A stretch of DNA of 64,000 nt from Giardia intestinalis (GCA_000002435.2 CM018793.1); one strand, 5' to 3'; shown: positions 3,797 through 58,742, counted from the stretch's first letter. The notes: a model not told the origin generated them from the letters alone. Made by a program: numbers and translations.

Positions 3797-6700
3797 ATGA
3801 CAATGCACGACCCTGACCAGCTGAGTCAACCAACTGAACCCCTACGAGTGGACCAATGTAATCCTGTGGCGTGCGGTGTCATTGGAACTGTTTATTCTCT
3901 TAAAAATTATCCTGACGCTGTGGTCAGGGAAATCAAAATCGGCGACCTTCCTCCGGATATTATGACAGCTTTGGAGACAGAAATAGACATTCTGCCTCGA
4001 CTCGCACATCAAAACGTGCTTGAGTATCATCAAGTTTTAACAGCCAAGGATGTAGTCTACATTTGCTTACCCCGTTATTGTTGGACCCTCTCTGCAATAA
4101 TTGCTATTTCCGATATAAAAAACAAGCGTTTTTCCGAGCAGACTGTCTGCATTATATTTGGTCAGATTGCTTCTGCTCTGGCATATCTCCACGATCCAAA
4201 TAAATGTGATATCAAGGGAAATCCCCTCCCAGTCTTTATTCACCAGGATCTCAAGCCAGACAGTATCTTGGTCAGCGCAGACGAAACTCAATATGTTATT
4301 ACAGACTTTGGATTCTGTAGAGAAGACCTAGATAGAGGATCTGTTGTTTTGGGTGTGCCTGAATATGCTGCTCCCGAGGCGCTTATTCTTAAAAAGTATA
4401 CTTCTGCCTCTGATGTATGGAGCTTAGGCTGTATTGTTTATGAACTTATAACTTTAAAAAGGCCTAACTTTGTAGGAACTCGCAAACCAGCCGAAGTTTT
4501 TGTCGATGATTGGAGTCCTAACTTAAGTGCTATCAAGAGTACGTTTCTGAAAGAAATGCTCAGACGCATTTTTGTTGTTAAGCCTGAAAATCGTGTCTCG
4601 GCTAAGGAGCTTGCAGAAATACTTGAGACGTGGAAAAGCTCACGCTATATAATTAGAGAGCTTAAGCACAAGGAGCAACAAATAAAGTGGAATCAGATGC
4701 TCATCGATCGTTCTAAGAGATTAGAGGAAAATTGCAGACAGTTGAAAGCAACGCTAGAAGATTCCAAAGCAGAAGTTAGAAACCAAATAGATACTATAGC
4801 TAAACTTGAAAACCAGAGTAACGAGTCTTCTTTGAGAATTAAACTATTGGAAAAGGAGATTGCTACCTTGAGAAGAACTATAGCATATCTAAGTCCCACT
4901 ACTGAAAGCGCCTCGTCAACTACTCTTATAGATGCTGTGAAAAACAATAGTATTGATTCAGTTAAGTCATTGGTCCAAAACTTAGAAGGACTTGGCCTCC
5001 GTGACGCTACGGATACGACAACTCTTATGTGCGCTGTTCACCAAGGAAAGTCTGAACTTGTTGAGCTTTTGGCAACTCTAAAAATGGGACTGCAGGATAA
5101 TAATGATAGAAATTCTCTTATGCATACTGCGATTCATGATTATCTCCAGGTTTCCAAGATTCTTCTCCCACATGAAACAGAGATTAAAGATGGCAACAAT
5201 AACACAGCCGCGATTCTCACTGCAAAGGAAAGGCATGGAGATATTGTGGATCTTTTCACTTTCTTGAACAAGGATGGTACTACAGCGCTTATGCAGGCAG
5301 TGCTACAAAATAATATTAAAGCAATAGATGTCCTCATTCCCCTCCAAAAGGGCGCCAGAGATAATAAGGGCATGACGGCACTAATGTATGCTGCTGCGAA
5401 TGGTCATACAGATGCCGTGCGTTTTCTTCTTGAGTACGAGAAAGGAATAAAGGACAAAAATGGTCATAATGCACTTTGCCATGCTCTTAAAAATAATCAC
5501 CTAGAAATTGCTAATAGTATTCTTCAGCATGATGATCCTACTGACACCGAAGGAGTTACAGCACTTATGCGAGCAGCCGCGAATAACAATGTAGCAATTG
5601 CAAGGCTACTTTTGCCAATACAAAAATGCCTAAAAGACAATAAGGGAGCAACTGCACTCATGCACGCAGCTAAAGCAGGTAGACTAGAGATGGTTGACTT
5701 GCTCGCTGAGTACGAGTCCAAGTGCAGGGATAATAATGGTCAGACCGCACTTATGTATGCAGCTTCTAATGGCTATTTTCAAGCAACTAAGGCTCTTCTA
5801 AAGTACGAGGTACAAATGAAGGATAATTATAATAACACTGCGCTCTCCTTGGCTATTAAACACAGACACACAGAGATAACTAAGCTTCTTCTTTGGTACG
5901 AAAACGATCCTTCTTGGACTGCTCTCATGTGCGCTGCGGTTACTGGTGATTTTGAAACAGCTAGGAGGCATATCAGTGAAAGAGATCTAGTGGACAATAA
6001 TGGGAGAACAGCTTTAGATCTTGCTAAGGAAGCAGGACATGGATCAGTTATTGAAATTCTTGACCATCTGGATGAAAAGGGTTTTACAGCTCTCATGCGG
6101 GCTGCTGCGCAAGGAGACCTGGATATGGTAAAGGTTCTCATTCCTGTTCAGAAGGGCATGCAAACTGTTACAGATGGAGAATGCTCTTGTAAAAATGATA
6201 AGTACTGGTTCAATAAGGGCACAACGGCACTTATGCTTGCTGCCCACTATGGTCATGTAGACATTGTAAAGGAGCTTGTGAAGCATGAGTACAATGTGCA
6301 CGATACTCGTGGCCGAACTGCTCTCATGATAGCCGCTGCATGGGGGAAGATTAATGTTGTAAGGGATCTTATACCTTTTCAAAAAGGGATGCAAACCACT
6401 GGTGATGGAGAATACGAAGCTGGGGAGCAGGGATTTTGGTTTAATAAAGGCTCTACAGCACTTATATTTGCCTCAAGACATTGCAGACTAAACGTTATCA
6501 AAGAACTTATAGAACATGAAAGCCGAATGCATGATGAGTTTGGTGGAACCGCTCTCATGTGGGCTGCACGACATGGACACACCCAAGCTATTTCACTCCT
6601 AATGGAGAGGGAAGGTCGAATGCAGAATGAACGAGGGTGGACAGCTCTGATGTGGGCTGTGCATAGTATTAAGTTAGAGGCTGTGAAGCTACTAATAGAG

Positions 6701-6907
6701 TATGAAAAGGGAATGAAGAGTACACGTGAATCAGAAACTATTCAGCATAATTCAAGCAGTCTTTCTGTTATTTTCAATGTAATACCGGACTCCTTTCCCT
6801 CGGGCTCAACAGCACTTGCGATAGCTAAGAAATGCAGCAAACTATTCGTTGGAAATTATCACCCCATTATCAATCTTCTTTCTCAGTATCCTGAAGAACG
6901 TTATTAG
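3797..6907 (+). CDS. Protein kinase with a C-terminal ankyrin-repeat domain (Giardia NEK-kinase / Protein 21.1 type). It is the sole gene in the unique core between the inverted-repeat arms.
   Basis: The N-terminal kinase domain shows a catalytic loop HQDLKPDSILV, ITDFGFC (DFG), YAAPE and DVWSLGCIVYEL. A coiled-coil segment follows (aa ~290-360). Then come ~19 ankyrin repeats with TALMxAAxxGH motifs. An A-rich element (ataaaaatcc) sits immediately 5' of the ATG. Confidence 0.9.
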   Translation: MTMHDPDQLSQPTEPLRVDQCNPVACGVIGTVYSLKNYPDAVVREIKIGDLPPDIMTALETEIDILPRLAHQNVLEYHQVLTAKDVVYICLPRYCWTLSAIIAISDIKNKRFSEQTVCIIFGQIASALAYLHDPNKCDIKGNPLPVFIHQDLKPDSILVSADETQYVITDFGFCREDLDRGSVVLGVPEYAAPEALILKKYTSASDVWSLGCIVYELITLKRPNFVGTRKPAEVFVDDWSPNLSAIKSTFLKEMLRRIFVVKPENRVSAKELAEILETWKSSRYIIRELKHKEQQIKWNQMLIDRSKRLEENCRQLKATLEDSKAEVRNQIDTIAKLENQSNESSLRIKLLEKEIATLRRTIAYLSPTTESASSTTLIDAVKNNSIDSVKSLVQNLEGLGLRDATDTTTLMCAVHQGKSELVELLATLKMGLQDNNDRNSLMHTAIHDYLQVSKILLPHETEIKDGNNNTAAILTAKERHGDIVDLFTFLNKDGTTALMQAVLQNNIKAIDVLIPLQKGARDNKGMTALMYAAANGHTDAVRFLLEYEKGIKDKNGHNALCHALKNNHLEIANSILQHDDPTDTEGVTALMRAAANNNVAIARLLLPIQKCLKDNKGATALMHAAKAGRLEMVDLLAEYESKCRDNNGQTALMYAASNGYFQATKALLKYEVQMKDNYNNTALSLAIKHRHTEITKLLLWYENDPSWTALMCAAVTGDFETARRHISERDLVDNNGRTALDLAKEAGHGSVIEILDHLDEKGFTALMRAAAQGDLDMVKVLIPVQKGMQTVTDGECSCKNDKYWFNKGTTALMLAAHYGHVDIVKELVKHEYNVHDTRGRTALMIAAAWGKINVVRDLIPFQKGMQTTGDGEYEAGEQGFWFNKGSTALIFASRHCRLNVIKELIEHESRMHDEFGGTALMWAARHGHTQAISLLMEREGRMQNERGWTALMWAVHSIKLEAVKLLIEYEKGMKSTRESETIQHNSSSLSVIFNVIPDSFPSGSTALAIAKKCSKLFVGNYHPIINLLSQYPEERY

Positions 6908-7030
6908 CCTTTTCGATAGCAGCGTCAATCCTCCACTTCGAGACATCAAAAAACATGCTGAGTTCGTTAGCTTTGGTTTCTCTGCCTTTATTAAAGCTAT
7001 AGCACATTTAAATAGAGAAGTGTTGAAGTA

Positions 7031-11143: not shown

Positions 11144-11171
11144 TGGATTCTGGATTGTGGATTGTGGATCT
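11144..11171. repeat. Short tandem repeat (TGGATTN)x4
   Basis: The sequence reads tggattc tggattg tggattg tggatct. Confidence 0.8.
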
Positions 11172-11204
11172 CAGCCATGCAAGGGTGGGAGATACCCGCT
11201 TGCC

Positions 11205-11290
11205 CAGGGTGGCGGTGGCTTGCGTGGAAAGATCACAGACCCTATTTCTTTATTATGGTTTTTAGTGGCTGCTCGCTCGGTCTTCCTCAA
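11205..11290 (+). repeat. Diverged, shortened third copy of an arm segment. It is homologous to left-arm 2536-2690 and lies in left-arm orientation.
   Basis: The arm segment ctgcttgcctaaggtggtggtggcttgcacgggaagatcaca aligns to ccgcttgcccagggtggcggtggcttgcgtggaaagatcaca at about 85% identity. A downstream ...ttttataataaag...ggccgctcgctgtgg aligns to tttctttattatgg...ggctgctcgctcggt with an internal deletion. Confidence 0.55.
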
Positions 11291-14200: not shown

Positions 14201-16567
14201 AGTGCCTAGACTTAAGAGAAGCATCTGCCAGCCCTGACGAGTATGGTTGTGCCCTTATTAGAATCGTCCGAAGTGCTCTTCTGTGGTCCCAAAAATGCGT
14301 TAGCATAAAGCAGCGTTCTCTTAACAGGTATCCAGTATGTGCCCACCCGACTATATTACGTGCACGCTAGTTTCGCAAATGGCTCCCTCTTATCTTTAAT
14401 ACCCGGCAGAGTATCCTCAACGATCTTTTCTAGGCCCTTGTAGTACGCATGCATATCCTTCTGATGTTGATGCGCACATGTCAGACCCAGGCCCCAAGAG
14501 ACCTGACGGCAGGCCGAGATTTGCTGCAGCGCGCCATCTTGTAGTCCCCGCTAGTCGTCGCTGGTGACATGCTGAACATACGCTGGAAGGCTGTGCAATG
14601 TAGCTTCTAACGCTGTTGCGGCCCAGCCTTTTCGGTGATTTCTCTGCGAGGGCCACTCCTCCTCTCGGTCTTCCGTGACCGAGATCGAGATCGAGAGTCA
14701 CTACCTATAGTGCCACGGAATTCAAGACGCGGATATCTCGACGGACAGTCTACTCTTCTAGTACCCGATCCATCTCCTTTCAAGGCGGATCTTTATCGAT
14801 GCAGAAGGTAGAAGGCTAGCTCTACTGATGCTTACATGCGGCCTTGCTGGACTGGCCGGTCCTACCGAGCAAGCGGACTCTGTGCAGAGACCCTTGCATA
14901 ACAGAGCATGCAGCGCAGAGAGGTGGGCAGGGACTCCAGTCCGGATCAGAAAAGTGGTTGGACGGGCACCACCGTGCCATCAGCAAGTGTAGACCCTTGG
15001 ATAGGGTGCTTCTTCTATACTCGCGGTCATAGTATTCCCTGCTTGAATGGCTGGGTTATCACCGTCGTCAGGCAAGTCGAGTACATCCAGTGTGACCGTG
15101 TATCTGAGCATGTATGCTTTCTCTTTGCTATTGTCCTTTGGACATACTTGGGCGGTCGCTAAGCTTTTGTCGAAGGCTAGAAGCCGCGGACGCGATCTAT
15201 TGTAAACGGTCTATCTGCGCGTCCCCGAACAAAAGCCAGATCACAGGGGCCAATAGGTGTGAACAGAGATCAAAGCTCTAGAGCCAAGTTCCTCTATGAG
15301 AGAATAGAAGCGGGCCTGCGCTCTTCACTCGGTCGAAGTAAATGGTGTCAGAATTTCTATCGGCAATATCATAGCCAGTAGCAGCCTCTTTTGTGTGGTT
15401 TTTGTCACGTGCCGAAGAATGCACAGGGACAGTGAACGGGCACCGTGGCAGTGCCCGTTGCTTCACAGAGATACCGAAGGGCACAGCAGCTAGTATCTCA
15501 AGCCAGGCTCTCAGAATGTGCAGAGATCCAGATGTCTCATCACTATATTCTTCTCTTTGGGGAGGTTCGGCACTTGCGGCAGAGCTACCCTGCTAGTTGC
15601 AGTATGGAGGCGATGCTCTCAATTATCGTGCTGCGTATGGCAAGGACCCCCGAGATGCTCTCAGAACCTAAAAGGTTCTCTTCTGTGCTTATAGGGAGCC
15701 AGCAGGCCTGAGTAGTGCCGCTTGCGATGTTCCTTATAGCCCCAACTGCTCTCTCCGTCGTGCGAGATAGGCAAACCGGCAGAGGAGCCTCTTCTTTTGA
15801 AATCTAGAACCATCGGGCAGCCTGTACTTGGTCATCGAAAGAGTACGGGGAATCTGATGCTGCACCGAGAACTCTTAAGCAACTGCACAGAGCCTGTCTC
15901 TGTTGCGAGTCTCCGGTAGCTGTGACCAGCATCGAGGTACTCAGCACACTCAATGGCTAGGCGAACACACCGCTTGGCCCGAAGCATCTGCACGATCGCG
16001 CCTCTGCCATCCAGATCCCAGGCTCTTCCTACAAAGCTCGAGAGCAGGCTTTAGATAGCATGCTCCTATCGCTAGTCCGGGATGTCATCTGCCCACAACA
16101 TACGAGGCTCGTCTCCTTCGAGTCCCCCGCTCTTGCAGCTGGCCTGGACAGACTAGAGGTCACCAGGGCAGCTCGCCGAGCCTGCTGTAACGCATAGCGC
16201 TAGAGGCAGGATGCTCTCCGTGCGTCGCCCGTCCGGCAACGGAGGCCGTCTTCGGCCTGCCTCGTCTTCTACGCGCCGGCGGACACTCAGCGGCGACGCG
16301 GGCCACCAGGGCGCTACGGCAAGGGCGTCCCCCCGCAGCAAGGGCCAGCAGGCAGAGGCCCGCGTCGTGAGGCGTATTCAGGAGAAGAGATCATCCTATG
16401 GCGGGACATGTGACTATATCATTTTCACGTGACAATGTCATCTTTTTTGTACCACCAAGGTTGCAGATCCATTAGTGCGTCTACTTTTTCTTTGTTAAGG
16501 CAAAACCTCATTGGCTCTTGAATTCCTTAGCGAATTTCCTTTTCACTTTGTATATTATTAACGCACA

Positions 16568-18863: not shown

Positions 18864-20511
18864 GCATAGAGACGTGTATTCTAATAGGTCGTTTCCTTTA
18901 TGCATAGTCAGCAATGTCATTGACGCAAGTTTTGCTTGTACATTAAGCCTATTGCATGTGCTATCAACCCTCTCACAGATTTACTTTTGGCTCCTGGCTA
19001 CTACAGCTCTGTGTGCTTGCACCCATTACTCGCATTTTCCGACGGAGTTAGATGACAGTCAGACATCAGTGCACTTCAGTATGACCGAGACAGGTTTGTG
19101 CAAGTACATAGCCAGCGGATTTGATATTGCACCAATGGCTGCTCAGGGCGTCGCTGGAATGGAGATGGATCTCACCATAGGTGTAATTAAAGTCAAGGTA
19201 TCGGATTTGTCCGTGAATGAGCTATCAGTTGAGAGCTATAAAACCCCCCTCATTGAAAATGCAGATAGTCGCTATGTTGAGTTTACTGGAATTACCATTG
19301 AAATTCAGTTGAAAATCGCTGTTACTGTCTTGCTTGTCCCCATGGAGGCTGTGATCTCGATTGGGATACCGCGTGCGAACGGCTACGCTTCCGGCCAAGT
19401 TGATATCAGCAACACGTGTCCTTACCATATATCTATAGACATCACTAACACGAAGATTGATTTTGATGAGATCACTCTTCAAGTTGTTGATGGGGATTCA
19501 GGGCTGTTGGGGTCGTTCTTACCTGGCTTCAAGTCTCAGATAGAGTCGGTCTTGAAGGGCGACCAGATGTCTTCTACTATGGCACAGGCATTCAATGCGA
19601 TCAAAGATGGGATGGAGAGTAGTGCCGACTACATTATCAACTTCTATGAGGACTCGGCAAAGAAGAAGACGCTCGTTGATGTACGCTATACTGGGTTTCT
19701 TTGGGGTCGTAACTTAGTCACGTTGAAGGCAGGTGGATACACTTATCCGTTTCTTGATGCTGGTGCCGATGGCTCCACACAGATACATTATGAAGGACAA
19801 CGAGAGACAGCGACTATGCCAACACAACTAAATGACAAGGACTGGCAGTTTATCATTGATGTGTCCGCATTTAAGTCTAACCTGGACGTGAACAATCGAG
19901 AAGCAAAGCTTTACGATGTCCAGTTCCGGTCTGACGACCTTAAATCTGTTTTTGGTAAAGCGTCGGCACCGGGTCATCTGATGGTGGCCGTTACAAACAA
20001 CGCCTCTCCAACTGTGTTAAAGGTAGGGGGCGCGGGCCTCAAGTGCTCTTTTGACATCACCGCAAAGATGTGGATTACCAAGAGTGATACGGACATGGAG
20101 AAGCAAGAGGATATTGGGTCTGTGCACCTTGTTTTTAGTGGTCTGGCGGCAGTCGGAGCAGACCAGTATCTCTGGACGGAGACTCTGAACACTACCATAA
20201 TATATCCTTCCTTTGAACAAATAATAGACATTAAGGGAGAAGTGTTGGAGAACCACGCTTCGTTTACACCAGGGGATGAGTACTGGTATAAGGAGATAGG
20301 CTCTGCCCTGGAGGTGGATTATTTCGGTGCACTCCACCCTATTCTTAGAAGGACCGGTCTTACATGGACTAATTTGAATTTTGCTAATTTCTCCGGTGTC
20401 CAGATAGTGTACCTCCCCGAGACGCTGGTCCTTGTCAGTGGGGACTTCTTTGACACTGCTGCTTCTGCAAGTAGTAGGGGTCACAGACGGCAGCCCCTTT
20501 CTCTTCGCTAA
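18787..20511 (+). CDS. Hypothetical protein with an internal hydrophobic stretch (possible signal anchor). The annotated ORF start overlaps the Rpr2 gene by 77 nt in another frame, so the true start may be the ATG at 19081.
   Basis: This is a 574-aa ORF. A hydrophobic segment FACTLSLLHVLSTLSQIYFWLLATTALCAC sits at aa 49-78, followed by a long mixed beta-rich body. No in-frame Met lies between the Rpr2 stop and the hydrophobic segment. Confidence 0.5.
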   Translation: MPKLKNLKLFMKHIGLHKNLGHKAYEHRDVYSNRSFPLCIVSNVIDASFACTLSLLHVLSTLSQIYFWLLATTALCACTHYSHFPTELDDSQTSVHFSMTETGLCKYIASGFDIAPMAAQGVAGMEMDLTIGVIKVKVSDLSVNELSVESYKTPLIENADSRYVEFTGITIEIQLKIAVTVLLVPMEAVISIGIPRANGYASGQVDISNTCPYHISIDITNTKIDFDEITLQVVDGDSGLLGSFLPGFKSQIESVLKGDQMSSTMAQAFNAIKDGMESSADYIINFYEDSAKKKTLVDVRYTGFLWGRNLVTLKAGGYTYPFLDAGADGSTQIHYEGQRETATMPTQLNDKDWQFIIDVSAFKSNLDVNNREAKLYDVQFRSDDLKSVFGKASAPGHLMVAVTNNASPTVLKVGGAGLKCSFDITAKMWITKSDTDMEKQEDIGSVHLVFSGLAAVGADQYLWTETLNTTIIYPSFEQIIDIKGEVLENHASFTPGDEYWYKEIGSALEVDYFGALHPILRRTGLTWTNLNFANFSGVQIVYLPETLVLVSGDFFDTAASASSRGHRRQPLSLR

Positions 20512-20597
20512 TGTGTGAAAGACCACTGTGAGTGCAAACACTGCCTTTGATGTTCTGGCTTGTGTAAATATGTCTTCTATTAAGTACTACCACTTTA

Positions 20598-21110
20598 CTA
20601 GTCCCAAAATGCTCCTAGGGCTTTAGATTCTTTGAGAAATGTATCTTTCCACGTCATGACTCTCTTTAAGGAAATGTACTCTTGGCCTCCATGAGTAACA
20701 ATAGAAGGTGCTAGATAACGCTTAAAGTGGTCAACCATCTTGATAGTGGCTCGGTTCAAAAGAGTGAGCTCATAGTCAGTTGGCTGATACGGTAGGTTCT
20801 GGTCCACAGACTCTAAAGGAACCAAGGTCAAGCAAAGAGAGAATGGCAGCTCTGCCTTATTAAGCCGCTCTAACCCAGTGACAAACGTAATGCTAGGAGA
20901 ATACTCTGTCAGGTAACCAATCTTCTCGTAAAATCCATCAGCAGAAACAGCAACCTCGACGGCGCAACTGGTCAAGCTGGCAGGGGTAAATGTAAAAACG
21001 CTGATGTTTCCGAGGCCGAAGGAATTAGGAAACGAAAGAACATAGTTCCCTTCTGTGGTCTGCTGGAATTGGTCTGAGTACCCCAGATGACAAACAACGC
21101 AGCCAAACAT
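20598..21110 (-). CDS. Hypothetical protein (170 aa)
   Basis: This is an ORF between two confidently coding neighbours, with compact spacing. No domain was recognised. Confidence 0.4.
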   Translation of the reverse strand: MFGCVVCHLGYSDQFQQTTEGNYVLSFPNSFGLGNISVFTFTPASLTSCAVEVAVSADGFYEKIGYLTEYSPSITFVTGLERLNKAELPFSLCLTLVPLESVDQNLPYQPTDYELTLLNRATIKMVDHFKRYLAPSIVTHGGQEYISLKRVMTWKDTFLKESKALGAFWD

Positions 21111-21179
21111 GGCAGGTCCAGATCAATCTTTATTAATTTAAAATTTCTTTTTTGAGACAAAGACCACCCTCCCCGTTCT

Positions 21180-22340
21180 ATGATTGACATCCAGGCAAAG
21201 ATTCGACACCAGGCACTCAGCAACGCTGCCGCGCTCAAAGAGGTCGGGGAATTTGTTGAGCGTATCTCCAAGAAGGACGAGGAAGCCACACACGCTGCCG
21301 CCACATTTGATCCATCGACCGTTAAAGTGCCCCCCATCCGGTGCTATGAGATTCCACTTGAGGAAGAAAAATCGGGGCTGTACACCGCTGAAGAGTATAA
21401 GGCTGTTGGTAACAAGCTGTTTGGAGAGCGCAAGTTTGAGAAGGCATTGGACTACTACGAGTGTGCCGGACGCATAGACCCAGGTATGGCGGCTGCCTTT
21501 GGGAATGCAGGCCTCTGCTACCAAAAGCTTAAGCGCGAAGATGAGGCCCTTGCCTCCTTCTCACGAGCTATAGGGATAGACCCTCAATATACGAAGATAC
21601 TCGTAAGACGTGGACGTCTGTATCTAGATCGAGGAGACTACCAAGCCTCATACGCCGACCTGTCCTTGGCACTCACTCTCCTTCCTGAGAAGGGGCGACA
21701 GGAGGTGCAGCAGGACTTAGAGCTTGTTAAATCAAAGTTAGTACCGGTGACTACTGTCACTACTACCACTGTAGGAGCAGCCGATATATTTGCTACTCAA
21801 AACACAGCAAGCAGAGGGAAATCCATCGCCATAGACATGAGCTGTCTCGATGAGGCGGTCGAGTCAAAGTCTCCCATAGGCTCTCCGTCACGCCCAACAG
21901 CCGTTCGGTTACGAGATTGCAAGAGAAACATCCCTTCCAACAAAGCCAAGCCTTCCGTTCCTCCTCCACCAACTTCAGCATTTTCTTTGTATAGCGACGT
22001 GCTTCATCTAAGTGAGCACTTGGACGTCTTGGCAGAATATCTTAACTCCTTCCACAGTGCGGTATTAGAATCTTACCTGTCAAGCCAGTTGACTGATAAG
22101 GAAATCAAGAGCATCGTGGCTGCCATTGGCCTACACAAGCTTTCCGCAAAGAAAACCATCAATACCCTTTATGCACTGACTCGCTTACCAAATCTCTCCT
22201 TCCTAAGCCCCTTTTTGTCAGAGGAGATAAAAACGACCATGCGTGCTACTCTTGAGTGGGCATTGCATCAGATTCCAGAGGACCAGGCTGAAGTATATAA
22301 TGAGAGAAACGATGAGGTGCGCGAGGCCTTTTGTCTCTAG
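21180..22340 (+). CDS. TPR-repeat protein
   Basis: At least three consecutive tetratricopeptide repeats are present: AEEYKAVGNKLFGERKFEKALDYYECAGRIDP, AAAFGNAGLCYQKLKREDEALASFSRAIGIDP and YTKILVRRGRLYLDRGDYQASYADLSLALTLLP. Confidence 0.7.
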   Translation: MIDIQAKIRHQALSNAAALKEVGEFVERISKKDEEATHAAATFDPSTVKVPPIRCYEIPLEEEKSGLYTAEEYKAVGNKLFGERKFEKALDYYECAGRIDPGMAAAFGNAGLCYQKLKREDEALASFSRAIGIDPQYTKILVRRGRLYLDRGDYQASYADLSLALTLLPEKGRQEVQQDLELVKSKLVPVTTVTTTTVGAADIFATQNTASRGKSIAIDMSCLDEAVESKSPIGSPSRPTAVRLRDCKRNIPSNKAKPSVPPPPTSAFSLYSDVLHLSEHLDVLAEYLNSFHSAVLESYLSSQLTDKEIKSIVAAIGLHKLSAKKTINTLYALTRLPNLSFLSPFLSEEIKTTMRATLEWALHQIPEDQAEVYNERNDEVREAFCL

Positions 22341-22535
22341 TTGTACTCGTATCTGTGTCCTGAGAGGGACATAGATCGATCCCTGAAGCCGTGTAGGTGT
22401 AAGAACCTATAGCAGCACGTTCTAAAGTAAACAGCCAGGTTTTAAAAGCACCCACTATTTACAGTCCCCCCGAAGGATAGAAAAATGAAGTAAGATAGAA
22501 CTAGTCTCCCATCATAGCTGAGTTGAAGTTGAGAA

Positions 22536-23663
22536 TCAATACACATCAACGTCCATCTGCTGACGTCGGATGTTGGCAGCTGCATCTTTGATTAGAGAAG
22601 GTGGTAAACTGATCCCCTTCGCCTTAAGCATTTGGCGAAGCTCGGTGACCTCTATTTTAGGATGCTCAGCTAAGATAGCTGCGATTGTTGAGTGCATTTC
22701 GGGGGAAACAACCTTCTTGGATCTCCGCCCCCTCGGCCCCACCTCAAGCTGACCACAATCTCGGAACTTTCTAACGATGTTTATTGCTGCACTATACTTT
22801 AGGTTGAGTTGCTTCACTGCTGATTGCACGTTCATCCCATCAATGCACACCATGTGAATAAGCCGCTCACGCGTTTCCTGGGGTATGATTAAATACTCTC
22901 TTTTGTTGCTAGCTGATCTCCCTCGTTGAGGGATATGAATAGAATGATCTTCAGGGCCAAGCTCACTAATGCTTAGTTGGTCATGTTCGTGGATTTGATT
23001 CTGGTTATAATCTTGGTGACCGTTGTTCTCTTCTGGCATGGTGTTGATCCCTAAAGTGAGGCTAAGCTTAGGATCAGAAGCCGGTCCATGATCATGAGGC
23101 AGGTCAGGGTCGTGGACAAGAGTGATAGTATTATCGGGAGCCGAGTTAGAATCGGAGCCGAGGCTAGTGCCAATCCGCTGCTCAACGTGCTTAACTATGC
23201 CTTGCTGATTTTGGCCAGGACCCAGATTGGCGGGTGGCATGAAGTCATCTCTGAAGAGCTGCCCATTGTCGACTTGCGGTAGCTCAAAGACATGATCCAT
23301 GTCTGGTCTATAGAATGTACAGCCCATGCTCCTTTTCCCGCTGCTGCTAGATAGCGATACATTAATCGATGGTGGGTCATTCAACCCTATTCGACTGGCC
23401 TTCAGAGAAGATGAATGCGAGCTAGGAGTGCTGCCATTTGAGCCTATATCTTTAAAAACAGGTAACATGTCACCATCTCCAGGGATAGCTGAGATGGTGG
23501 ATCGCCGCAAATTCCGAGCGGATGTGATAAGCCCCGGGGGCAACTGTCTAAACAATGGGGAGGTTAATTCCCGACTAAGCTCGGTCATCAGGTCTGTACC
23601 GCTTCCTGAGAAGACAGGAGCATGCTCATCATACTCGGACATTGGCAATGTATAGGTGAGCAA
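22536..23663 (-). CDS. DNA-binding protein with a C-terminal paired / Tc1-like bipartite HTH domain. It may be a Pax-like factor or a transposase-derived protein, and it has no DDE catalytic domain.
   Basis: The C-terminal ~110 aa read ETRERLIHMVCIDGMNVQSAVKQLNLKYSAAINIVRKFRDCGQLEVGPRGRRSKKVVSPEMHSTIAAILAEHPKIEVTELRQMLKAKG. This follows the PAI/RED paired-domain and Tc1-transposase N-terminal pattern R.RIV...G.S...IS..L.VS...V.KI..R..ETG...P...GG.KP.V.TP.....I......P..T..E....L. The N-terminal 250 aa are low-complexity and Ser-rich. Confidence 0.55.
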   Translation of the reverse strand: MLTYTLPMSEYDEHAPVFSGSGTDLMTELSRELTSPLFRQLPPGLITSARNLRRSTISAIPGDGDMLPVFKDIGSNGSTPSSHSSSLKASRIGLNDPPSINVSLSSSSGKRSMGCTFYRPDMDHVFELPQVDNGQLFRDDFMPPANLGPGQNQQGIVKHVEQRIGTSLGSDSNSAPDNTITLVHDPDLPHDHGPASDPKLSLTLGINTMPEENNGHQDYNQNQIHEHDQLSISELGPEDHSIHIPQRGRSASNKREYLIIPQETRERLIHMVCIDGMNVQSAVKQLNLKYSAAINIVRKFRDCGQLEVGPRGRRSKKVVSPEMHSTIAAILAEHPKIEVTELRQMLKAKGISLPPSLIKDAAANIRRQQMDVDVY

Positions 23664-23745
23664 GACCGAGAGGTCTGCAACCGACAGGTATTTTTTTAGG
23701 CTGACGAATCAGAAGACGGTTTACTTTGGACGGGGGTATACAATC

Positions 23746-24462
23746 TTAGATAAAAGATCCAGGAGTACTGAGCAGGGACGTACCTTCAGGTTGGAGGATG
23801 CCCGAGTTTGGTTTTATGGGCGCGGAGGATCTCTTTTGCCTTTTAATGAGGAAATAGAAAGCCAGAGTTGTCATAACTGCACAGAGAAGTACGGTGACTA
23901 TCACTGAGATGGCTACGGCTGCGCCTGCCGAAAGACACTTATCAGAATTTCCAAAACCTGCACAGATGCAATCTCCATAGGCCATAGTCCACCCATTCTT
24001 GCATGATACGCAGTGTTCTCGCTCTCTGTCGTACGAGTCGTTATATCGAAAGCACATTCCTCGACTCAGAGATCGATAGCAGCCGTTCCCGATTTTCTGA
24101 TACCCTTTGCTACAATCGTGACACGTTGGGACAATCTGGTCTCCCTCATGCTTAAGGTTGCAGTTTCCAAATTCAAACTGCTTCCAGCAACTTTTATCTA
24201 TAAGGACGTGGTCGTTCGTGCAAGCCGTACATCTGATTTCCTCGTCATTATAATGAAAGCAATTCTCGTTGAAGCAATATGTGCATGTAGGGTAGCACAA
24301 TCTGTCCGCGTCAGTGTCTTGGGGATTCACGTAGGGCGTGTATCCTACCTGGCACGTGCAAGCGTCTGTACCCGCACCAGTTATGCAAGGAGCGGGATCA
24401 GTTGCACCTTTAAATCTATATGGCAGAAGCCACAGTGTAGCTGCAACTAGAGTAGCAGCCAT
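23746..24462 (-). CDS. Cysteine-rich type I membrane protein resembling a high-cysteine membrane protein, with EGF/furin-like repeats
   Basis: It has an N-terminal signal peptide (MAATLVAATLWLLPYRFKGA) and ~30 Cys residues with many CxxC/CxC spacings. A C-terminal TM helix (AAVAISVIVTVLLCAVMTTLAFYFLI) follows, then a basic cytoplasmic tail (KRQKR...). Confidence 0.6.
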   Translation of the reverse strand: MAATLVAATLWLLPYRFKGATDPAPCITGAGTDACTCQVGYTPYVNPQDTDADRLCYPTCTYCFNENCFHYNDEEIRCTACTNDHVLIDKSCWKQFEFGNCNLKHEGDQIVPTCHDCSKGYQKIGNGCYRSLSRGMCFRYNDSYDREREHCVSCKNGWTMAYGDCICAGFGNSDKCLSAGAAVAISVIVTVLLCAVMTTLAFYFLIKRQKRSSAPIKPNSGILQPEGTSLLSTPGSFI

Positions 24463-24602
24463 CTATAAACAAGCGAGAGATTTATTTTCCCTTACAAGAG
24501 AAAAGATTTGCTTTCTAAACTCAGAGAGAGGCCCTTAGTGTAAAATAGTAGAGTAAAGTTAAGGCAGATCAAGGCGGAGTACCTTTTACACGCTATAGTA
24601 AT

Positions 24603-25652
24603 TTACATCATCCTTTTAGCGGCTTCAGCTATGTTTTCTAGACAGGGTCTTTCCGCTGGGTCTATAGATAGACAGGCGTTTAAGACGTGCCTCAATTCAT
24701 CACTAAATTGGCTCTGTGACTGTTGCATCACGTTCGGGCTACCATTATTAGATGGAATCTGCTTCGTAGGAAGCCTTGTAGGAAGTTCGATGGGCCTGGG
24801 AAGACGTGTTATGCTTAAGTAGAGGTCTATTTCGCGTCCTGTGGTAAATGGGCGCTTCTTGAAGATCAGCTCGTACAAGTAGCAGCCAAGGGCCCATATA
24901 TCGCCCGACAGAAGAGTATTTGTCGCTCCAGGGACGCTGTCACCGTTGCTGTTGGTTTCAAGTTGCTCGGGCGCCTTGTACAAGTCTATGGCTACGGATA
25001 TGTGCAGATTTAGGGGTGCGGTTATTTTCAGCTCTGACGACATCCCCACATCCATGAGCTTCACACTCCCATCTTTGTCCAGGTATATGTTTTCGGGCTT
25101 AAGAGAGGCATGTGCCACAGGGCCCCTACCAAGGGGGTTTCCGTGCAAATATCTGAGCGCGGACACTATCTGACTCAAGGTCTTCCATATCATGGACTCA
25201 GTCATGGGCTCGTGGCTTCCAGAAGCACCCATGCTCTCTCTCAAGCTGGGACGGGCCTCATCACGCGAAACTAGCTCTCTAGCGTCCCCGAGGAGAGGGG
25301 AGATAATGTACAATCGAAGGATAGTTGAATCATATATGGCATCGATGGGCGAATTGATGTTTGGATGGCATAGCTGCAGCTGGATACTCGCACACTCAAG
25401 GAGCTGCTTTTGATGAGGCTCAGTATACATGTCACAAGGTATTTCTTTGCATGCAAAAACCGTTTTGGTATTTTTCTTACGAACGACATATACGCGGCCG
25501 TGTGGACCCAGGCCCACCGAGGCTGACATTATGAAGTACGTTTTTGTCTCATCACTATAAGGGTTTAGTTTGACAGTCTTTTCAACAGGGATTTCCTCTT
25601 TATCATAATACTCAGCCAGGCTACCACTCCTAATCCCCGCGGGAAACGCCAT
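24603..25652 (-). CDS. Protein-kinase-fold protein, predicted pseudokinase
   Basis: The kinase fold is recognisable through VFACKEI (VAIK Lys), a catalytic loop LKPENIYLD, YKAPE and DIWALGCYLYELIF. However HRD is replaced by HAS, so the catalytic Asp is lost, and DFG is replaced by DVG. Confidence 0.75.
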   Translation of the reverse strand: MAFPAGIRSGSLAEYYDKEEIPVEKTVKLNPYSDETKTYFIMSASVGLGPHGRVYVVRKKNTKTVFACKEIPCDMYTEPHQKQLLECASIQLQLCHPNINSPIDAIYDSTILRLYIISPLLGDARELVSRDEARPSLRESMGASGSHEPMTESMIWKTLSQIVSALRYLHGNPLGRGPVAHASLKPENIYLDKDGSVKLMDVGMSSELKITAPLNLHISVAIDLYKAPEQLETNSNGDSVPGATNTLLSGDIWALGCYLYELIFKKRPFTTGREIDLYLSITRLPRPIELPTRLPTKQIPSNNGSPNVMQQSQSQFSDELRHVLNACLSIDPAERPCLENIAEAAKRMM

Positions 25653-25718
25653 CTAGCGACCTTTTTTTGTTTACATGTAAATATTTAGTGTTTTAGATGT
25701 GGCGTCGATGCAGCACCG

Positions 25719-26624
25719 CTACCGCCTCCCAACGTGCATGGCCCGCATCAAGACCACTAACATACCCACGACATCGGAGTATATCTTCAAGGTGTATTTG
25801 GCCCAATCAGAGCAAGTACTCTTATTGACTGCCAACCACACATCAACTATCAAAAACAAAGCATATACAAGGCAAATAAGGACAGAAACTACCACAGTGG
25901 TTATTGAGTAAGATTTTTGGCTCCCGAAGAGATTCCAAATGAAGAGCATGGGGTACAGTAGCCAGAGGAGCTGACTGCAGCAAATGGCTATCAGAATCAT
26001 CACCCAAACCTTTGTCTCGCTCTTAATGCACAGCGCTATAGATGTACAGAAGACCAAAATGAACAGAACACAGAGTAATGATGATCCAAAAACTATGATG
26101 TTGGTCACCATTGAAAGGCCGATAAAGAGTATGCTCGAGAAAACTGGCCCAATTATCAGCAGGGTGATCGTGCCACACTTTCCAATAGAATCCATGCAGC
26201 ACGAATTGATCATAGAAATTACGATATACCCTATGCAGCCGACAGCAATCAGGATTACCTCGGTGATAAAGTACGTATACAGTAGTTCAGGTGAAACGAC
26301 TCCGTTATGAACTTTGAAAATAACAGTCGTTACTAATATGTATAACCCGATTGTTAAGATTGCAGTTCCCATTATCATTATTGCCAGGGTCAAATATATC
26401 TTAATAGTCAATGATCGGCGGATTGATGTCTCAAAACCATTAACGGTCTGTTCATACAAACTGTTACTGCCTCTTGTGTTGACATTGCTCGTGTATTTGT
26501 GGCCATCCTCGATTCTATTCATTCTTAGCGTTTCCTCATTCTCCTGCCTTCTACTGAATCCAGCAGGAGCCAAATAGGGCTGGGGGCATCTCGCTTGGTC
26601 GTACGATGTCATGAGCTTCTCCAC
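25719..26624 (-). CDS. Multi-pass membrane protein (about 6-7 predicted TM helices), hypothetical
   Basis: There are repeated ~20-aa hydrophobic segments, including LTLAIMIMGTAILTIGLYILVTTVIF, ITEVILIAVGCIGYIVISMI, ITLLIIGPVFSSILFIGLSMV, LLCVLFILVFCTSIALCI, WVMILIAICCSQLLWLLYPMLFI and VVVSVLICLVYALFLIVDVWLAV. Confidence 0.55.
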   Translation of the reverse strand: MEKLMTSYDQARCPQPYLAPAGFSRRQENEETLRMNRIEDGHKYTSNVNTRGSNSLYEQTVNGFETSIRRSLTIKIYLTLAIMIMGTAILTIGLYILVTTVIFKVHNGVVSPELLYTYFITEVILIAVGCIGYIVISMINSCCMDSIGKCGTITLLIIGPVFSSILFIGLSMVTNIIVFGSSLLCVLFILVFCTSIALCIKSETKVWVMILIAICCSQLLWLLYPMLFIWNLFGSQKSYSITTVVVSVLICLVYALFLIVDVWLAVNKSTCSDWAKYTLKIYSDVVGMLVVLMRAMHVGRR

Positions 26625-26877
26625 CTGATTTTTTAAATCTCTTTTTTAAACCTGCGATGTCTATCATTAATGCATAAAGTTATTAAGCAAATTGTAAAGC
26701 CTTTAGCCTTTCAGCAATTGTCTTTTAAATCAACACCTTGAGAACAAAACATAACGCATCAGCGGTTGAACCATGGCCATCTAGAACCAGTGCGCTGTAC
26801 ATACTATAAACCCTGTGCATACTATTTTTACACTCCTTCAACACATACGTTGCGGTGTTCAGCCAATTTTTCGGAAG

Positions 26878-29800
26878 TTATGTTGTCAAGAGAACATCTA
26901 AGAAAAACCTCGCTCCATATTCCTCGAGCTGCTCTCGGAGTGGCTTACTATTGGATTTTAGATCTCTATGTTGCGATAGAATAGATAATACATTGTTGAT
27001 ATGGCAGCCCCGGATGTAACTCAGCCCTGCCATGATCACGTCAGCCATTCTCTTGTACGCGCCCTTAAATCCGGTGCTACGATAGATGATGTCAAGCAAG
27101 GATTGAGCCAGATAATCGGCTGACCTTTGGGAGATAACTGCGGTATCGACTACGGCAATGTGCACTAGAGCGACGCGGGTAAACGTTAGAATGTTGATAA
27201 ACCCATGAGACGTGGGTGGGAATATCTGGAGAACTCGCCGGGCCACATAGAGTGCTTTTACGAGTAGGCCTGCTCGAGCATACGCCTCCAGCAGCACGGA
27301 GCAAACAAGCTTAGAGGGCAAGAGCGTTGCGTCGGAGCGCATGTATTGAATGCTTAATATCGAAATGCTGTCAAAGTCGGGAAGGGACTCCTTGTAGATT
27401 GCCTTGGCACCCTTGCTAGTAAAGGGAGTGGATTCAGAGTCGTCAGTGGGAGCCCCCTCTGACTTCTGTGTAGAGATAAAGGTAATGTTGTCCTTTTCAA
27501 GCAGTTCCGCCTCATTTCTAATTCTGAAATACTTGCAGCAGCACGCAATCACAAAGATGCATACATTGAATACGCATTCCTTTATAGCCACCATGTTGTT
27601 GTAAGCGACCTGGCACTCAAAGGCCAGCGTTTCCAGCTCACTAGCATTTCTGAAGGAGAGGAAAGCACTGGTCGCATAGAGGCACAGAGCGAGAGGCTGC
27701 GATATAACATTCTCTACCACATCGCTGGATAGGAGATAGATCGTCTGTTTGTACGAAATAAGGTGAGCACGCACGGTTTGATCAATGTGGGGAAGAATGT
27801 GTATTGACGTTAGCTCAAAGATGTAAGATAGTAGAGGAGGAATAAAGTTGTAACTCTGTAACGACCTCTCCGCAGAGCCCATTGTTTTTTGAGACTTTGT
27901 TTCTTCTAGCTGCAGCATCTCTGCAACGGCCTTCACAATGTGGAACATTGCGGCCTTGGGGAGCTCGTGAATGTAACTTGGAGCAATAGCTGCAAGAATC
28001 CCTATCATGGCAATTCCCTCAATTGTTGTCCCATACAAGAGGCACCGCTCCACCATAGCTGCTGCCAGTGACAAGTACAGCTCCGTTAAGTCCCGTAAGA
28101 AAAGCGCATAAAAGATAAGGAAGAGGAGCTTTTGGATGGATCTCTCCAGCAACGATGCCCTCTTCATATATTGCATAAGCGCATAGGGGGTCGAGGGAGA
28201 CTTCAGTGAGTCAAAAGCAACCATGATTGCAGCCTGTGGATGCGGCTTCAGTCCATTACCCTCAACAAGATTGGTAGTGAAGAGAAGAGAGAGGGTCGCA
28301 ACAATAGTGTCCCGGTGAATGCTTTTATTCATGGTTATCATAGGTAGGAAAGCGTTGATGTGCGCCTCATCTCCAAGCAACTTCTGCAGCATTGAGACAG
28401 CGATTGAGACAGCCCGCGCCGGCTTGTTACTCTGTATCATGCCCAGTGTCCACTCCCATATAAGTCCCAGCCAGTAATGCTTGTACACCTCATTTGATAG
28501 TTTGTCGGTTACATATGTGGACTGCACCAGATTGTATCTTGTGGTGAAGCGGATTGACTGTACCGAATAGCAGATGCTGTTTGCACATGTAAAGTTAAAT
28601 AGCAAGGGAAATGCATTGTACAACGCGGTAAGTTCAGAATCGGTACCGACCTGTATGGTCTCATTATACATTGTGTCAATCATGTCTGTCGGATCCGTCC
28701 CATTGGGGTCTGACTTTGAAACCAGGCTTTGGAGCGCATTTGGTTTACCAGGCAGAGCATCTGCATTGCCACTGGTAATGGGAGAGCTGTGGGCACTGTT
28801 AGGGTTTGAGAGTACACCTATGGTACACTTGAGTAGCGAGTCTAGGTCAAGGGAATTAGCAGTTTTGAACGTCAGCAGGGGCCTCTTCTGGGCAACAACC
28901 TTATAGTTCGACAGGGACCAGTTCTGCCTTTCCATTGGATTGAGACATAGCATGGCCATAGCAGTCCAGATTTCGTGCTCAGCTGACTTTGCCATTGAAA
29001 GGTATTTGCTGATGTCAGCAAAGCTCTTAGAGAGGATGTCGCATGCATATGTGTTTAGTCTCAGAAGTTCATACTGGTCATAAATGTCGAGCAATTTGCT
29101 TGCACACGGATTGAGGCACTTCAGAAGCTTGGTTATGTCCACAAAAAGTCCATCATATTGCTCTAGGAGACATGCCCGTGTGCTTGGTGTTCTGAGGTCG
29201 GCTTCCATTTGCTTAAGAAAAGCCTCTTGCTGTTGCCAGTTGTTTACCCCCATGTTATGGTCAAAAAAGAAGGTCTTGTGAGTGCGCAAAGCAATCCGTA
29301 ATGAAAGAGAGGCCTTGTTAATCTGAAGATCATTTAATGAAACATCTGCCGCCTTACCCGAAGCCCTCAATAGAGAAACAAAGTCCAAGTGGAGCTTTCT
29401 GATTAGTTCTCCCGTCTCCAGCTCTCTGGGATCATAGTTTCTTATATAGAGGGACGGCTTAAGGTCGGATTTTCTCTCCAAAACAGAGTCCCGTGCAATC
29501 CACCTCTTCCGAAGATATAGTGCGATCAGGAATAGCTTTTGGCTCATGCCAGATGTAAATGACTCTTCCAGAACCTTGCATAGACTGATATTATTAAACA
29601 GAAAAATGTAGCCTATCCGATTTGTAGATTTGTTAGGATTGTAGGGATTGTGGGCTAGGTCCACGCCATGGTCTGCACCTCCTTGTGCATAAAGCGGATG
29701 CCTAAGCTGTACAAATTGTGGGGCGCAAGAAATTAGATGCATATTAGAAAGCTCAGTGAGAGACGTGAGGATCACATCGTCGTTACTGTAATTGAGGGCA

Positions 29801-57017: not shown

Positions 57018-58655
57018 CTATCTTTTGATGCCCTTGGCTCTACCTTCTACAGTACCCGGTGTCACAAAATTGAAAACCTTTTCCGAAATCTTAGCATCTT
57101 CGAATAATAACAGTAGTGAGGATGGAGTGGCAAGTCTCCCCTGCAGCTGCTTGGCAACTTCTTCCACTTCATTCGTAGGCAAGTAGCGCCGAAGATTCTG
57201 CACGAACTTGGAAGTGCCAAGGCAAGAGCACAGGGCAGCGTAATCCAGTTTCAATCTTGCTCCATCTGCACCAAGAGTGCTGCAATCTCCCAGGACATGT
57301 TGTGCATGCGCCTTATCTCCTCTAAAGAGCTTCAAGCTGGATAGCTGGGCTGTTGTTGAACGCTCAGTTAGAGATAGGGACAAGCAGTTCCCCACAATTC
57401 TTGCAAACTCCATCAGCTCTGTTTCTCTACCTGTCTCGTGTCCGAATCTAATCTTTATGCAGCAACTCACGAAATCAATCAGATCGGGCCCTTCCTCCGT
57501 AAGAATATTCTCTATCTCGGGAGAAAGGCTGCCTGAGTGGTCATCGGAATTAGGTTCAAGCAGATTGTGTAGATGGAGATTGACTTTGGCTCTGAAAGCG
57601 TCAGCGGTAGTGTTCGGCGATAACGTATACCCACAAACCATACAGTACGAAAGAAAAAGATCATAAATTTGTTTCTTATATGTTTGAATGAAGAGCATGC
57701 GCATTCTGAACAAATAAACATTGTGTTTTTGCGAGGCATCTTGTCTGGGCGGTTTTGGGTTGGAGGGGCTAGAGTTATTATTTGTGCGAGGGTTGTCATG
57801 CTCTAGTGGAAGAAAGAACACAACTCGAGATATGATTGATTCTAGAAGAGTCAACCCCAGTGAATACACATCTCCCAAAGCATCAAGAGACGTGGGTGTT
57901 ACACTTTCTTGTCGGTCAAAGAGGGAACCATTAGTAGAAAGGAAATCATAGCATCTGAGCGTCGATTCAGGCGCCCTGTACACGAGGGTGCACGTTGTTC
58001 CCGTTGAAATGGGGGAGTAGTGATCGGCGGAAAGAACCTCAGGCTCAGCGTAGTTAGCAGAAGCACTTGGAGAGGAATAAACACAATATTTAGCCATCCC
58101 CAGGTCTGCAAGAAAAGCAGAGCCGTTGCCATCCAGAAGAATGTTCGACGGCTTGACGTCTCTGTGTGCGATCCCCAGTCTGTGAAGGTTCCGAAGACAA
58201 GTAACCACAGAGTGCCAGAAGAACACCATCTGGGACAGTGTAAAGCTGCTTACTAAGTTGTACGTTCGGAACCTTTCACAGTCGTGTGGATAGAGCGGAG
58301 TGACAAGGCAGATTAGCGAAGAGCAGTTCTCGAAATGCTTCGCAAAGGGTAAGTCTTTCGTTGTATCATCGAGTCGTAATTTGAAGCTCGAGATAAGATC
58401 GATTGCAGGATTCTTAAAAGGCTGGCCGCCAGCCGTAACCTGAGCCAGGTATGCGAGTAAGGTCACTTCACGCAGCACCAGATGGTTGAAAACGCCTGAA
58501 ATGCCGACAGCCTTGAGAGCAACAGGTTTGCCCGTCTCCTTATCTATCCCCTTGTAGATCGTGCCGTACGCGCCTGCTCCGAGGTATCCTGCGGGTGACC
58601 AGTCGATCGCATACCGCTCGAGGGAAGAGGGGATGGTCGGCTGTGGCTCGGTCAT
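57018..58655 (-). CDS. Ser/Thr protein kinase (predicted active) with a ~260-aa C-terminal extension. The start is taken as Met-19 of the annotated ORF (MTEPQ...) so that the CDS does not read through the tRNA.
   Basis: Kinase motifs are intact: GAGAYGTIYKG, VALKAV, HRDVKPSNILLD, DLGMAKY and YRAPE. The ATG at 58653-58655 lies 15 nt downstream of the tRNA-His 3' end. The ORF-track start at 58709 would overlap the tRNA. Confidence 0.8.
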   Translation of the reverse strand: MTEPQPTIPSSLERYAIDWSPAGYLGAGAYGTIYKGIDKETGKPVALKAVGISGVFNHLVLREVTLLAYLAQVTAGGQPFKNPAIDLISSFKLRLDDTTKDLPFAKHFENCSSLICLVTPLYPHDCERFRTYNLVSSFTLSQMVFFWHSVVTCLRNLHRLGIAHRDVKPSNILLDGNGSAFLADLGMAKYCVYSSPSASANYAEPEVLSADHYSPISTGTTCTLVYRAPESTLRCYDFLSTNGSLFDRQESVTPTSLDALGDVYSLGLTLLESIISRVVFFLPLEHDNPRTNNNSSPSNPKPPRQDASQKHNVYLFRMRMLFIQTYKKQIYDLFLSYCMVCGYTLSPNTTADAFRAKVNLHLHNLLEPNSDDHSGSLSPEIENILTEEGPDLIDFVSCCIKIRFGHETGRETELMEFARIVGNCLSLSLTERSTTAQLSSLKLFRGDKAHAQHVLGDCSTLGADGARLKLDYAALCSCLGTSKFVQNLRRYLPTNEVEEVAKQLQGRLATPSSLLLLFEDAKISEKVFNFVTPGTVEGRAKGIKR

Positions 58656-58666
58656 CAAAACAAGGG

Positions 58667-58670
58667 AAAA
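58667..58670 (-). terminator. Pol III oligo-T terminator following tRNA-His
   Basis: The minus strand reads ...CCCGGC A TTTT CCCTTGTTTTG ATG. Confidence 0.5.
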
Positions 58671-58742
58671 TGCCGGGACCGGGAATCGAACCCGGATTGT
58701 TCGGACCACAACCGAACGTACTAGCCTTTATACGATCCCAGC
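58671..58742 (-). tRNA. tRNA-His (anticodon GTG)
   Basis: A manual cloverleaf fits. The acceptor is GCTGGGA/TCCCGGC with one G-T pair. Residues 8-9 are TC. The D-arm is GTAT-AAAGGCTA-GTAC. The anticodon stem is TTCGG/CCGAA with loop TTGTGGT (U33, anticodon GTG, G37). The variable loop is CAAT. The T-arm is CCGGG-TTCGATT-CCCGG. The discriminator is A. The gene is followed immediately by TTTT. Confidence 0.85.

Follow-up and report, generated by a model that had tools for sequence, protein, structure and literature searches.

A Giardia gene for a C-terminal bipartite helix-turn-helix protein is very probably pax1, and its domain appears at least as close to transposase modules as to metazoan Pax

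The closest described system to the locus considered here is Pax1 of Giardia lamblia, reportedly described by Wang et al. in 2010 in J Biol Chem (285:32213), and the locus, an open reading frame (ORF) on the minus strand of a 64,000-nucleotide stretch of Giardia intestinalis DNA (GCA_000002435.2 CM018793.1; hereafter the window), is very probably the pax1 gene itself. ORFs 32686 (Pax1) and 16640 (Pax2) were found by BLAST with the Pox meso paired domain from Drosophila, and their paired domains lie near the C-terminus, unlike those of human Pax proteins (PMC3280250). ORF 32686 is equated with Pax1 in both PMC3280250 and PMC6411161, and the Pax1 transcript is XM_001704983. According to passages in these two later papers, Pax1 is detected as a protein with antibodies, localizes to nuclei and binds AT-rich initiator elements belonging to cwp1-3, myb2 and ran; its overexpression raises cwp1-3 and myb2 messenger RNA 1.57-3.0-fold, it represses its own gene, it co-precipitates with ERK1, whose complexes phosphorylate it, and pax1 is up-regulated in encystation and placed downstream of ERK1 (PMC3280250; PMC6411161). 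By the same passages Pax1 requires its C-terminal domain, and the basic residues of that domain, to localize to nuclei, bind DNA and transactivate (PMC3280250; PMC6411161), and those in the first paper add that Pax1 binds poly(A) tracts carrying various T insertions and that its overexpression changes 38 genes upward and 54 downward, with small fold changes (PMC3280250). Pax2, a protein of 302 residues, has a paired domain only 11% identical to that of Pax1, and is like it in having a C-terminal paired-like domain, in lacking an octapeptide and a homeodomain, in being nuclear, in binding AT-rich initiators, in activating cwp1-3 and myb2 and in being an ERK1 target (PMC3280250). Pax2 is not in the window, and no protein of its length was present among the 36 matches (E ≤ 1e-3) of the exhaustive profile search given below.

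The domain of Pax1 can also be set beside two better known kinds of DNA-binding module. Metazoan paired domains (Pax6 6PAX, Pax5 1K78, Prd 1PDN, Pax8 2K27) share with it the PAI plus RED architecture and an aligned linker at about 20% identity; they differ in that the linker reads GGSKP rather than PRGRRSKK, and, as a passage in PMC3280250 has it, in recognizing Pax consensus sites whereas Giardia Pax1 binds AT-rich DNA. The N-terminal domains of IS630/Tc1-mariner transposases (NF033545; Sleeping Beauty 2M8E/5UNK; Tc3 1U78) appear to have the bipartite helix-turn-helix (HTH) in common with Pax1, but in Pax1 the HTH is C-terminal, DDE/D is absent and synteny is that of a host gene. The structural matches to the Pax1 domain also include CENP-B (1HLV) and SETMAR (7S03), two examples of host proteins in which a bipartite HTH of transposase type has been retained for DNA binding in the cell; they differ from Pax1 in their functions, show no specific similarity to it in sequence, and score lower in structure than Pax does. 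In addition, the basic, Arg-rich linker of Pax1 recalls the GRPR-like motif of Tc1 transposases, which we take as a lead only.

We put the probability that the ORF is pax1 (ORF GL50803_32686), a cellular gene present in one copy that encodes a DNA-binding regulator of transcription in the nucleus, at roughly 0.85. The protein of the window is 100% identical, over 100% coverage, to the 368-residue GL50803_0032686 of Giardia duodenalis WB (P0001), and the window accordingly comes from assemblage A (WB) of that species. All five Giardia orthologues (P0001-P0005) begin MSEYDEH or MSDYDEH at the same ATG position, with identities to Pax1 of 91% in assemblage E, 74% in assemblage B and 63% in two further lineages. 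Because the start is annotated at ATG 23642 and is shared by all five, we place it there, and the 375 residues of the mechanical ORF at the earlier note's coordinates, which begins at a TTG, are replaced by 368; the seven extra codons of the mechanical ORF, relative to the annotated protein, are its one departure from published Pax1, which is otherwise the same gene. The feature is genuine but already published and experimentally characterized, and nothing in the gene itself is new.

Several independent comparisons identify the C-terminal domain as a bipartite HTH. Taken in isolation, the last 124 residues match Pfam PAX (PF00292) at 24.6 bits (E 2.5e-5, model positions 18-109), against a gathering cut-off of 22 bits, and the full-length protein scores 21.4 bits; HTH_32 (24.6 bits against a cut-off of 33.7), HTH_29 and HTH_SB are weaker matches. 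When the domain sequence was compared with PDB sequences by phmmer, Prd, Pax8, Pax5 and Pax6 were the only matches (E 0.003-0.018, with about 93 residues aligned). The full-length AlphaFold model contains six helices within residues 255-367, preceded by residues 1-247 at a predicted local distance difference test score (pLDDT) below 50, and a domain-only model built on a 19-sequence alignment has a mean pLDDT of 75.8, rising to about 90 in the first bundle. In these models the six helices form two three-helix bundles (domain pLDDT 73-92) on either side of a low-confidence segment, as expected of a flexible linker. Foldseek searches of PDB with both models returned Pax6, Pax5, Prd and Pax8 as the top four (best E 4.6e-4), and CENP-B, IstA, Mos1 and Tc3 ranked lower. 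No DDE/D catalytic domain, nor any further Pfam domain, was found in Pax1 at E ≤ 10, and the protein ends three residues past the last helix, with no match to DDE_3 or another catalytic domain. The earlier note, which had proposed a paired/Tc1-like HTH-HTH domain at the C-terminus of a protein with no transposase catalytic core, to be judged by a paired-model match and by two three-helix subdomains, is therefore borne out in both respects.

This part of the protein is also the most conserved: between Giardia assemblages the C-terminal domain is 85-99% identical, and the N-terminal region 55-90%. Residues 261-300 are 100% invariant across the five G. duodenalis orthologues, as is the stretch G302-K310 of the linker (G-P-R-G-R-R-S-K-K) among the Giardia orthologues, and the basic arm in front of helix 1 (Table 1) is retained, as KRxY, in ciliate-type relatives as well.

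A more distant orthologue was recovered by the exhaustive profile search, a 201-residue protein (P0006) from an 82.9-kb contig of the Logan assembly SRR31929897 (L001, 6001-6606) whose C-terminal HTH-HTH domain is 44% identical to that of Giardia Pax1, keeps the RGR core of the linker as GSRGRKSRK and is preceded by about 80 residues. Its gene is convergent with an RPAP3-like tetratricopeptide repeat (TPR) gene, which matches the arrangement in the window, where pax1 faces such a gene at 21180..22340; identity between the two TPR proteins is 38-45%. P0006 is thus a positional orthologue of Pax1 in a distant Giardia-like species, and shows that placement of the domain at the C-terminus is ancestral and that evolution of the N-terminal region is fast. 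An AT-rich AATTCAAAAATTC lies directly 5' of the P0006 ATG.

The Giardia domain falls within the superfamily of paired / Tc1-IS630 bipartite HTH domains, and scoring against curated models suggests that there it stands at least as near to the DNA-binding modules of transposases as to metazoan Pax, so that the Pax label appears weak. A Pax6 fragment without the hairpin scores 203.7 bits on Pfam PAX, as compared with 24.6 for the Giardia domain. On the same model Sleeping Beauty scores 28.1 bits (its N-terminal query sequence was validated by a full-length HTH_SB match of 98.7 bits), an Anopheles protein with ZAD and DDE_3 scores 34.2, and IS630-like fragments score 23-27; since true transposases thus reach 23-34 bits, the PAX model is unable to separate Pax from transposases at this level. 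The NCBIfam IS630 transposase model (NF033545) matches the Giardia domain at positions 2-96 with 24.8 bits (E 1.3e-5), far short of its whole-protein cut-off of 100 bits because the Giardia domain corresponds to the DNA-binding part only. P0006 scores 28.1 bits on the IS630 model and has no match to Pfam PAX at E ≤ 0.01.

Pax-family features divide in a similar way. The bipartite PAI plus RED fold with its linker is present in the Giardia domain. Three of five such features are lacking, namely a PAX score above the transposase level, the beta-hairpin and N-terminal placement: PAX positions 1-17 are unaligned and the segment before helix 1 is modelled as coil (pLDDT about 49) with no strand, and the domain takes up residues 248-368 at the end of the 368-residue protein, which has neither octapeptide nor homeodomain and no other Pfam domain at E ≤ 10. 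The earlier note had offered two alternatives, a transcription factor resembling Pax and a Tc1/mariner module that had been domesticated; the protein is the published Pax1, and because its domain is as close to IS630/Tc1 HTH modules as to Pax, the two alternatives are not really exclusive.

These comparisons bear most directly on where the domain came from. We consider it an even bet that the Giardia domain is an IS630/Tc1-type DNA-binding module captured separately, or belongs to an older family of protist HTH proteins related to such modules, and that it is not an orthologue of the metazoan paired domain; such an origin is compatible with function as a transcription factor. The tie between the two curated models, a PAX score at transposase level and far below that of Pax6, the absence of a PAX match in P0006, and the missing hairpin, octapeptide, homeodomain and N-terminal placement all point this way. 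So does an exhaustive profile search of 1.84 billion protein representatives, whose 36 matches at E ≤ 1e-3 include no canonical Pax: the nearest relatives outside Giardia are transposase-type N-termini and ciliate and microsporidian HTH proteins at 35-51 bits, with an insect DDE_3 protein and IS630-like fragments also among those beyond the Giardia lineage, and the microsporidian relatives, from Cucumispora, are short and continue into sequence resembling that of transposases. The top relatives were, however, picked from a huge library, and a high score alone does not amount to phylogeny. With the single Giardia domain sequence as a phmmer query, Cucumispora proteins score 44-48 bits and IS630-like sequences 33-36, compared with 18-21 for Pax and 21.5 for Sleeping Beauty. 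Against a separate capture stand the four paired domains that are the closest solved structures by both Foldseek and phmmer, above Tc3, Mos1 and CENP-B, the spacing within the linker (G-x-[IL]-x-x-G...K-x-V-x-[ST]-P), which aligns well with Pax, and the lack in the window of a DDE transposase or transposon remnant of matching type. With a broader family profile Pax6 is matched at E 6.6e-11 and the PAI and RED subdomains of Sleeping Beauty at 4e-6 and 0.004, so that Pax6 is about equal to the two Sleeping Beauty subdomains summed. The profile of the exhaustive search, when run against PDB, gave Prd 12.9 bits only. This narrow profile, built from near-identical Giardia domains, had lost sensitivity there, and its top matches were spurious ones to OPA1.

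Among the relatives, a set of short proteins (P0019-P0024, P0028-P0030, P0032, P0035 and P0037-P0040) shares a first-HTH signature, KRxY..I...R..L..LV..G..IK.AA..L.INYSTAK, and lacks the second HTH. Most of them sit on contigs roughly 1 kb long, a single one comes from the ciliate Nyctotherus ovalis, and in Pfam they match the generic HTH_28 and HTH_23 only; they may represent an undescribed family of protist HTH regulators. Other proteins (P0008, P0010, P0025, P0027 and P0041) bear on how such sequences are named: ordinary transposase N-termini of Tc1/IS630 type score 23-34 bits on PAX, above its gathering score of 22, and NCBI gives one Cucumispora relative the name 'Paired box protein Pax-1'. 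Outside animals, 'paired domain' names assigned automatically are likely over-annotations. A bolder reading, which we advance tentatively and hold at slightly less than even odds, is that the Giardia 'Pax' proteins are not Pax orthologues and belong to an unrecognized family of bipartite or PAI-only protist HTH regulators that includes Pax1, P0006, the ciliate KRxY...INYSTAK proteins and the microsporidian proteins, and that this family is derived from or sister to IS630/Tc1 modules, independently of the capture that gave rise to animal Pax.

Turning to function, the published experiments show a nuclear protein that uses its C-terminal domain to bind AT-rich initiators and has a modest activating effect on encystation genes. 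In the mechanism that we propose, the two bundles would place their third helices in adjacent major grooves, as in paired domains and Tc3, and the invariant PRGRRSKK linker, with its AT-hook-like RGR core, would occupy the narrow minor groove of A/T tracts; such placement of the linker would account for the loose AT-rich specificity of Pax1. The disordered, acidic N-terminus would carry activation and regulation by mitogen-activated protein kinase (MAPK), with S28-P29 and T72-P73 as candidate ERK1 sites.

The first 244 residues of Pax1 contain 13.5% Ser and 9% Pro and have a net charge of -14; with the low pLDDT noted above, it is fair to call the region, which the earlier note had described as Ser-rich and of low complexity, Ser-rich and disordered. 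It does have features, in that residues 1-40 and 61-120 form conserved patches in which 60-80% of columns are invariant across the five orthologues. The N-terminal region has just two S/T-P sites, S28-P29 and T72-P73, and both fall inside these patches; this conservation, together with the phosphorylation associated with ERK1 (reported in PMC3280250), makes them candidate MAPK (ERK1) sites, the patch around S28-P29 being a candidate MAPK site or docking motif. The N-terminal region as a whole is probably a regulatory or activation region.

Sequence upstream of pax1 offers a possible counterpart for autoregulation. The intergenic region contains the A-rich tract TAAAAAAATA, which could be a Pax1 autoregulatory site, given the reports that Pax1 recognizes poly(A) with T insertions and that pax1 is under its own repression.

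Several considerations weigh against reading Pax1 as a dedicated activator of encystation genes that works in this manner. The functional statements reach us second-hand through later papers of the same laboratory, and passages in one of these describe effects that are modest, 1.5-3-fold on overexpression, and binding to the constitutive ran promoter without activation (PMC3280250), so that specificity for encystation genes is not firmly established. Both the groove contacts and the phosphosite assignments are inference on our part. Moreover, recognition-helix residues differ from those of Pax in the phmmer alignment, which means that the DNA-contact geometry of Pax6 cannot simply be transferred and is consistent with a DNA specificity other than that of Pax.

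Pax1 might instead be a general AT-tract or core-promoter binding protein, an architectural or initiator factor at many promoters, although we regard this as the less likely description. It would fit the binding of the ran initiator alongside those of the cwp genes and of poly(A) with T insertions, the small fold changes of the 38 genes raised and 54 lowered on overexpression, as told in passages of PMC3280250, and a basic, RGR-containing linker that suggests low-specificity, minor-groove binding. It fits less well with the rise of cwp1-3 and myb2 on overexpression and with the induction of pax1 in encystation downstream of ERK1, both recounted in passages of PMC3280250 and PMC6411161.

We judge it improbable that Giardia Pax1 is a true pre-metazoan Pax, descended from the same capture event as the animal Pax genes. 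PAX is the best Pfam match, narrowly over its cut-off for the isolated domain, paired domains are the top structural matches, and reviews cite the Giardia protein as evidence that PAX arose before metazoans. Every point given above for an independent capture counts against this descent, however, and between diplomonads and animals only transposase-like or PAI-only proteins turned up; Burglin and Affolter, for their part, describe the relationship of the Giardia protein to transposases as not elucidated.

Finally, the idea that the ORF is a piece of a transposon in decay, or an artefact of annotation, and serves no function in the cell, for which similarity to transposase HTH modules is the sole argument, can be rejected as scarcely credible: the ORF is intact with a near-invariant domain in at least five Giardia lineages, synteny is kept in a distant species, antibodies have detected the protein and experiments have been done on it according to passages in PMC3280250 and PMC6411161, and the window holds no DDE domain of this kind, no terminal inverted repeats bracketing pax1 (within 20500-26000) and, by tblastn over all 64 kb, no second copy, a result that covers the window's share of the genome-wide search for repeats and remnants proposed in the earlier note.

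Table 1. Coordinates of pax1, its protein domains and other features of the window
Feature	Position	Strand	Remarks
Mechanical ORF	22536..23663	minus	375 residues, begins TTG at 23663
pax1 coding sequence (GL50803_32686)	22536..23642	minus	368 codons plus TGA stop, ATG at 23642
N-terminal region, residues 1-247	22902..23642	minus	Predicted disordered, acidic, Ser/Pro-rich
Conserved patch, residues 1-40	23523..23642	minus	Includes invariant S28-P29 within SPLFRxLPPGL
Conserved patch, residues 61-120	23283..23462	minus	Includes invariant GSNGSTPS with T72-P73
First HTH subdomain (PAI-like), residues 247-296	22755..22904	minus	AlphaFold pLDDT about 80-92; aligns from PAX position 18
Basic/aromatic arm KREYLIIPQ	Precedes helix 1 of PAI-like subdomain		Conserved in Giardia orthologues
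PAI-like helices	Residues 255-267, 272-279, 283-296		AlphaFold models
Basic linker, residues 297-313 (GQLEVGPRGRRSKKVVS)	22704..22754	minus	Direct sequence reading; pLDDT low
Invariant R304-G305-R306 core of linker	22725-22733	minus	Sequence
Second HTH subdomain (RED-like), residues 314-365	22548..22703	minus	AlphaFold pLDDT about 80-89; HTH_32 and PAX up to 109
RED-like helices	Residues 314-326, 332-341, 348-365		AlphaFold models
Intergenic region 5' of pax1	23643..23745	minus	103 nt, read directly from sequence
A-rich tract TAAAAAAATA	23689-23698		Within pax1 upstream intergenic region; direct sequence reading
AGTAAAC poly(A)-signal-like motif	23719-23725		In pax1 upstream intergenic region; assigned to upstream gene
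Kinase-domain ORF, 349 residues	24603-25652	minus	Pkinase 115 bits
1906-residue ORF	26878-32598	minus	N-terminus reads LHRNITSES
Perfect (100%) inverted repeat	1-3595 and 7032-10627		Arms at least 3.6 kb; left arm touches window edge and may extend
Transfer RNA gene	58671-58742	minus	Rfam 56.1 bits; sole Rfam match in the window, unrelated to pax1

Examination of the neighbourhood places pax1 as the final, downstream member of a same-strand run of membrane and kinase-like genes (23746-32598). Upstream of it on that strand are the 1906-residue ORF, a multi-pass membrane ORF, the kinase-like ORF and a Cys-rich membrane ORF (23746-24462). The earlier note had put the gene upstream of a membrane/pseudokinase cluster, which its minus-strand orientation reverses. 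The pseudokinase character that the note suggested for these neighbours is upheld as far as motifs go: the 349-residue kinase ORF reads HASLKPEN where HRDLKPEN is expected, so that the catalytic Asp is missing, and DVG for DFG, and both it and the 1906-residue ORF look like pseudokinases.

Elsewhere in the window, the outer parts of the inverted repeat are GC-rich (0.61-0.68) and its arms contain no ORF of at least 200 residues, the shorter ORFs having no Pfam match. The 3.4-kb segment that it brackets is AT-richer and carries most of a 1036-residue ORF with protein-kinase and ankyrin-repeat domains (3797..6907). The repeat (window 1-10627) could be a genuine palindromic structure or an assembly artefact. 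It is followed by some 6 kb (10628-16567) with no ORF longer than 134 residues, in an otherwise tightly packed genome, and the two ORFs of 126-134 residues there have no Pfam match. The mechanical ORF 57018..58709 shares its 5' end with the transfer RNA gene, and the GTG start of that ORF is for this reason probably too far upstream.

For the biology of Giardia, pax1 is relevant as a regulator of cyst-wall genes, and hence of transmission, a role published since 2010. For the paired-domain family, the comparisons suggest that the Pax label of the Giardia protein rests on a model match that ordinary transposases also reach, and they call for caution where proteins of protists and microsporidia are annotated automatically as 'Paired domain-containing protein'. 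Were Giardia Pax1 a true pre-metazoan Pax, the origin of the paired domain would move back to early eukaryotes. If instead the Giardia 'Pax' proteins belong to a separate family of protist HTH regulators, what reviews repeatedly state, that PAX must on the evidence of Giardia have arisen before the metazoans, would be unfounded.

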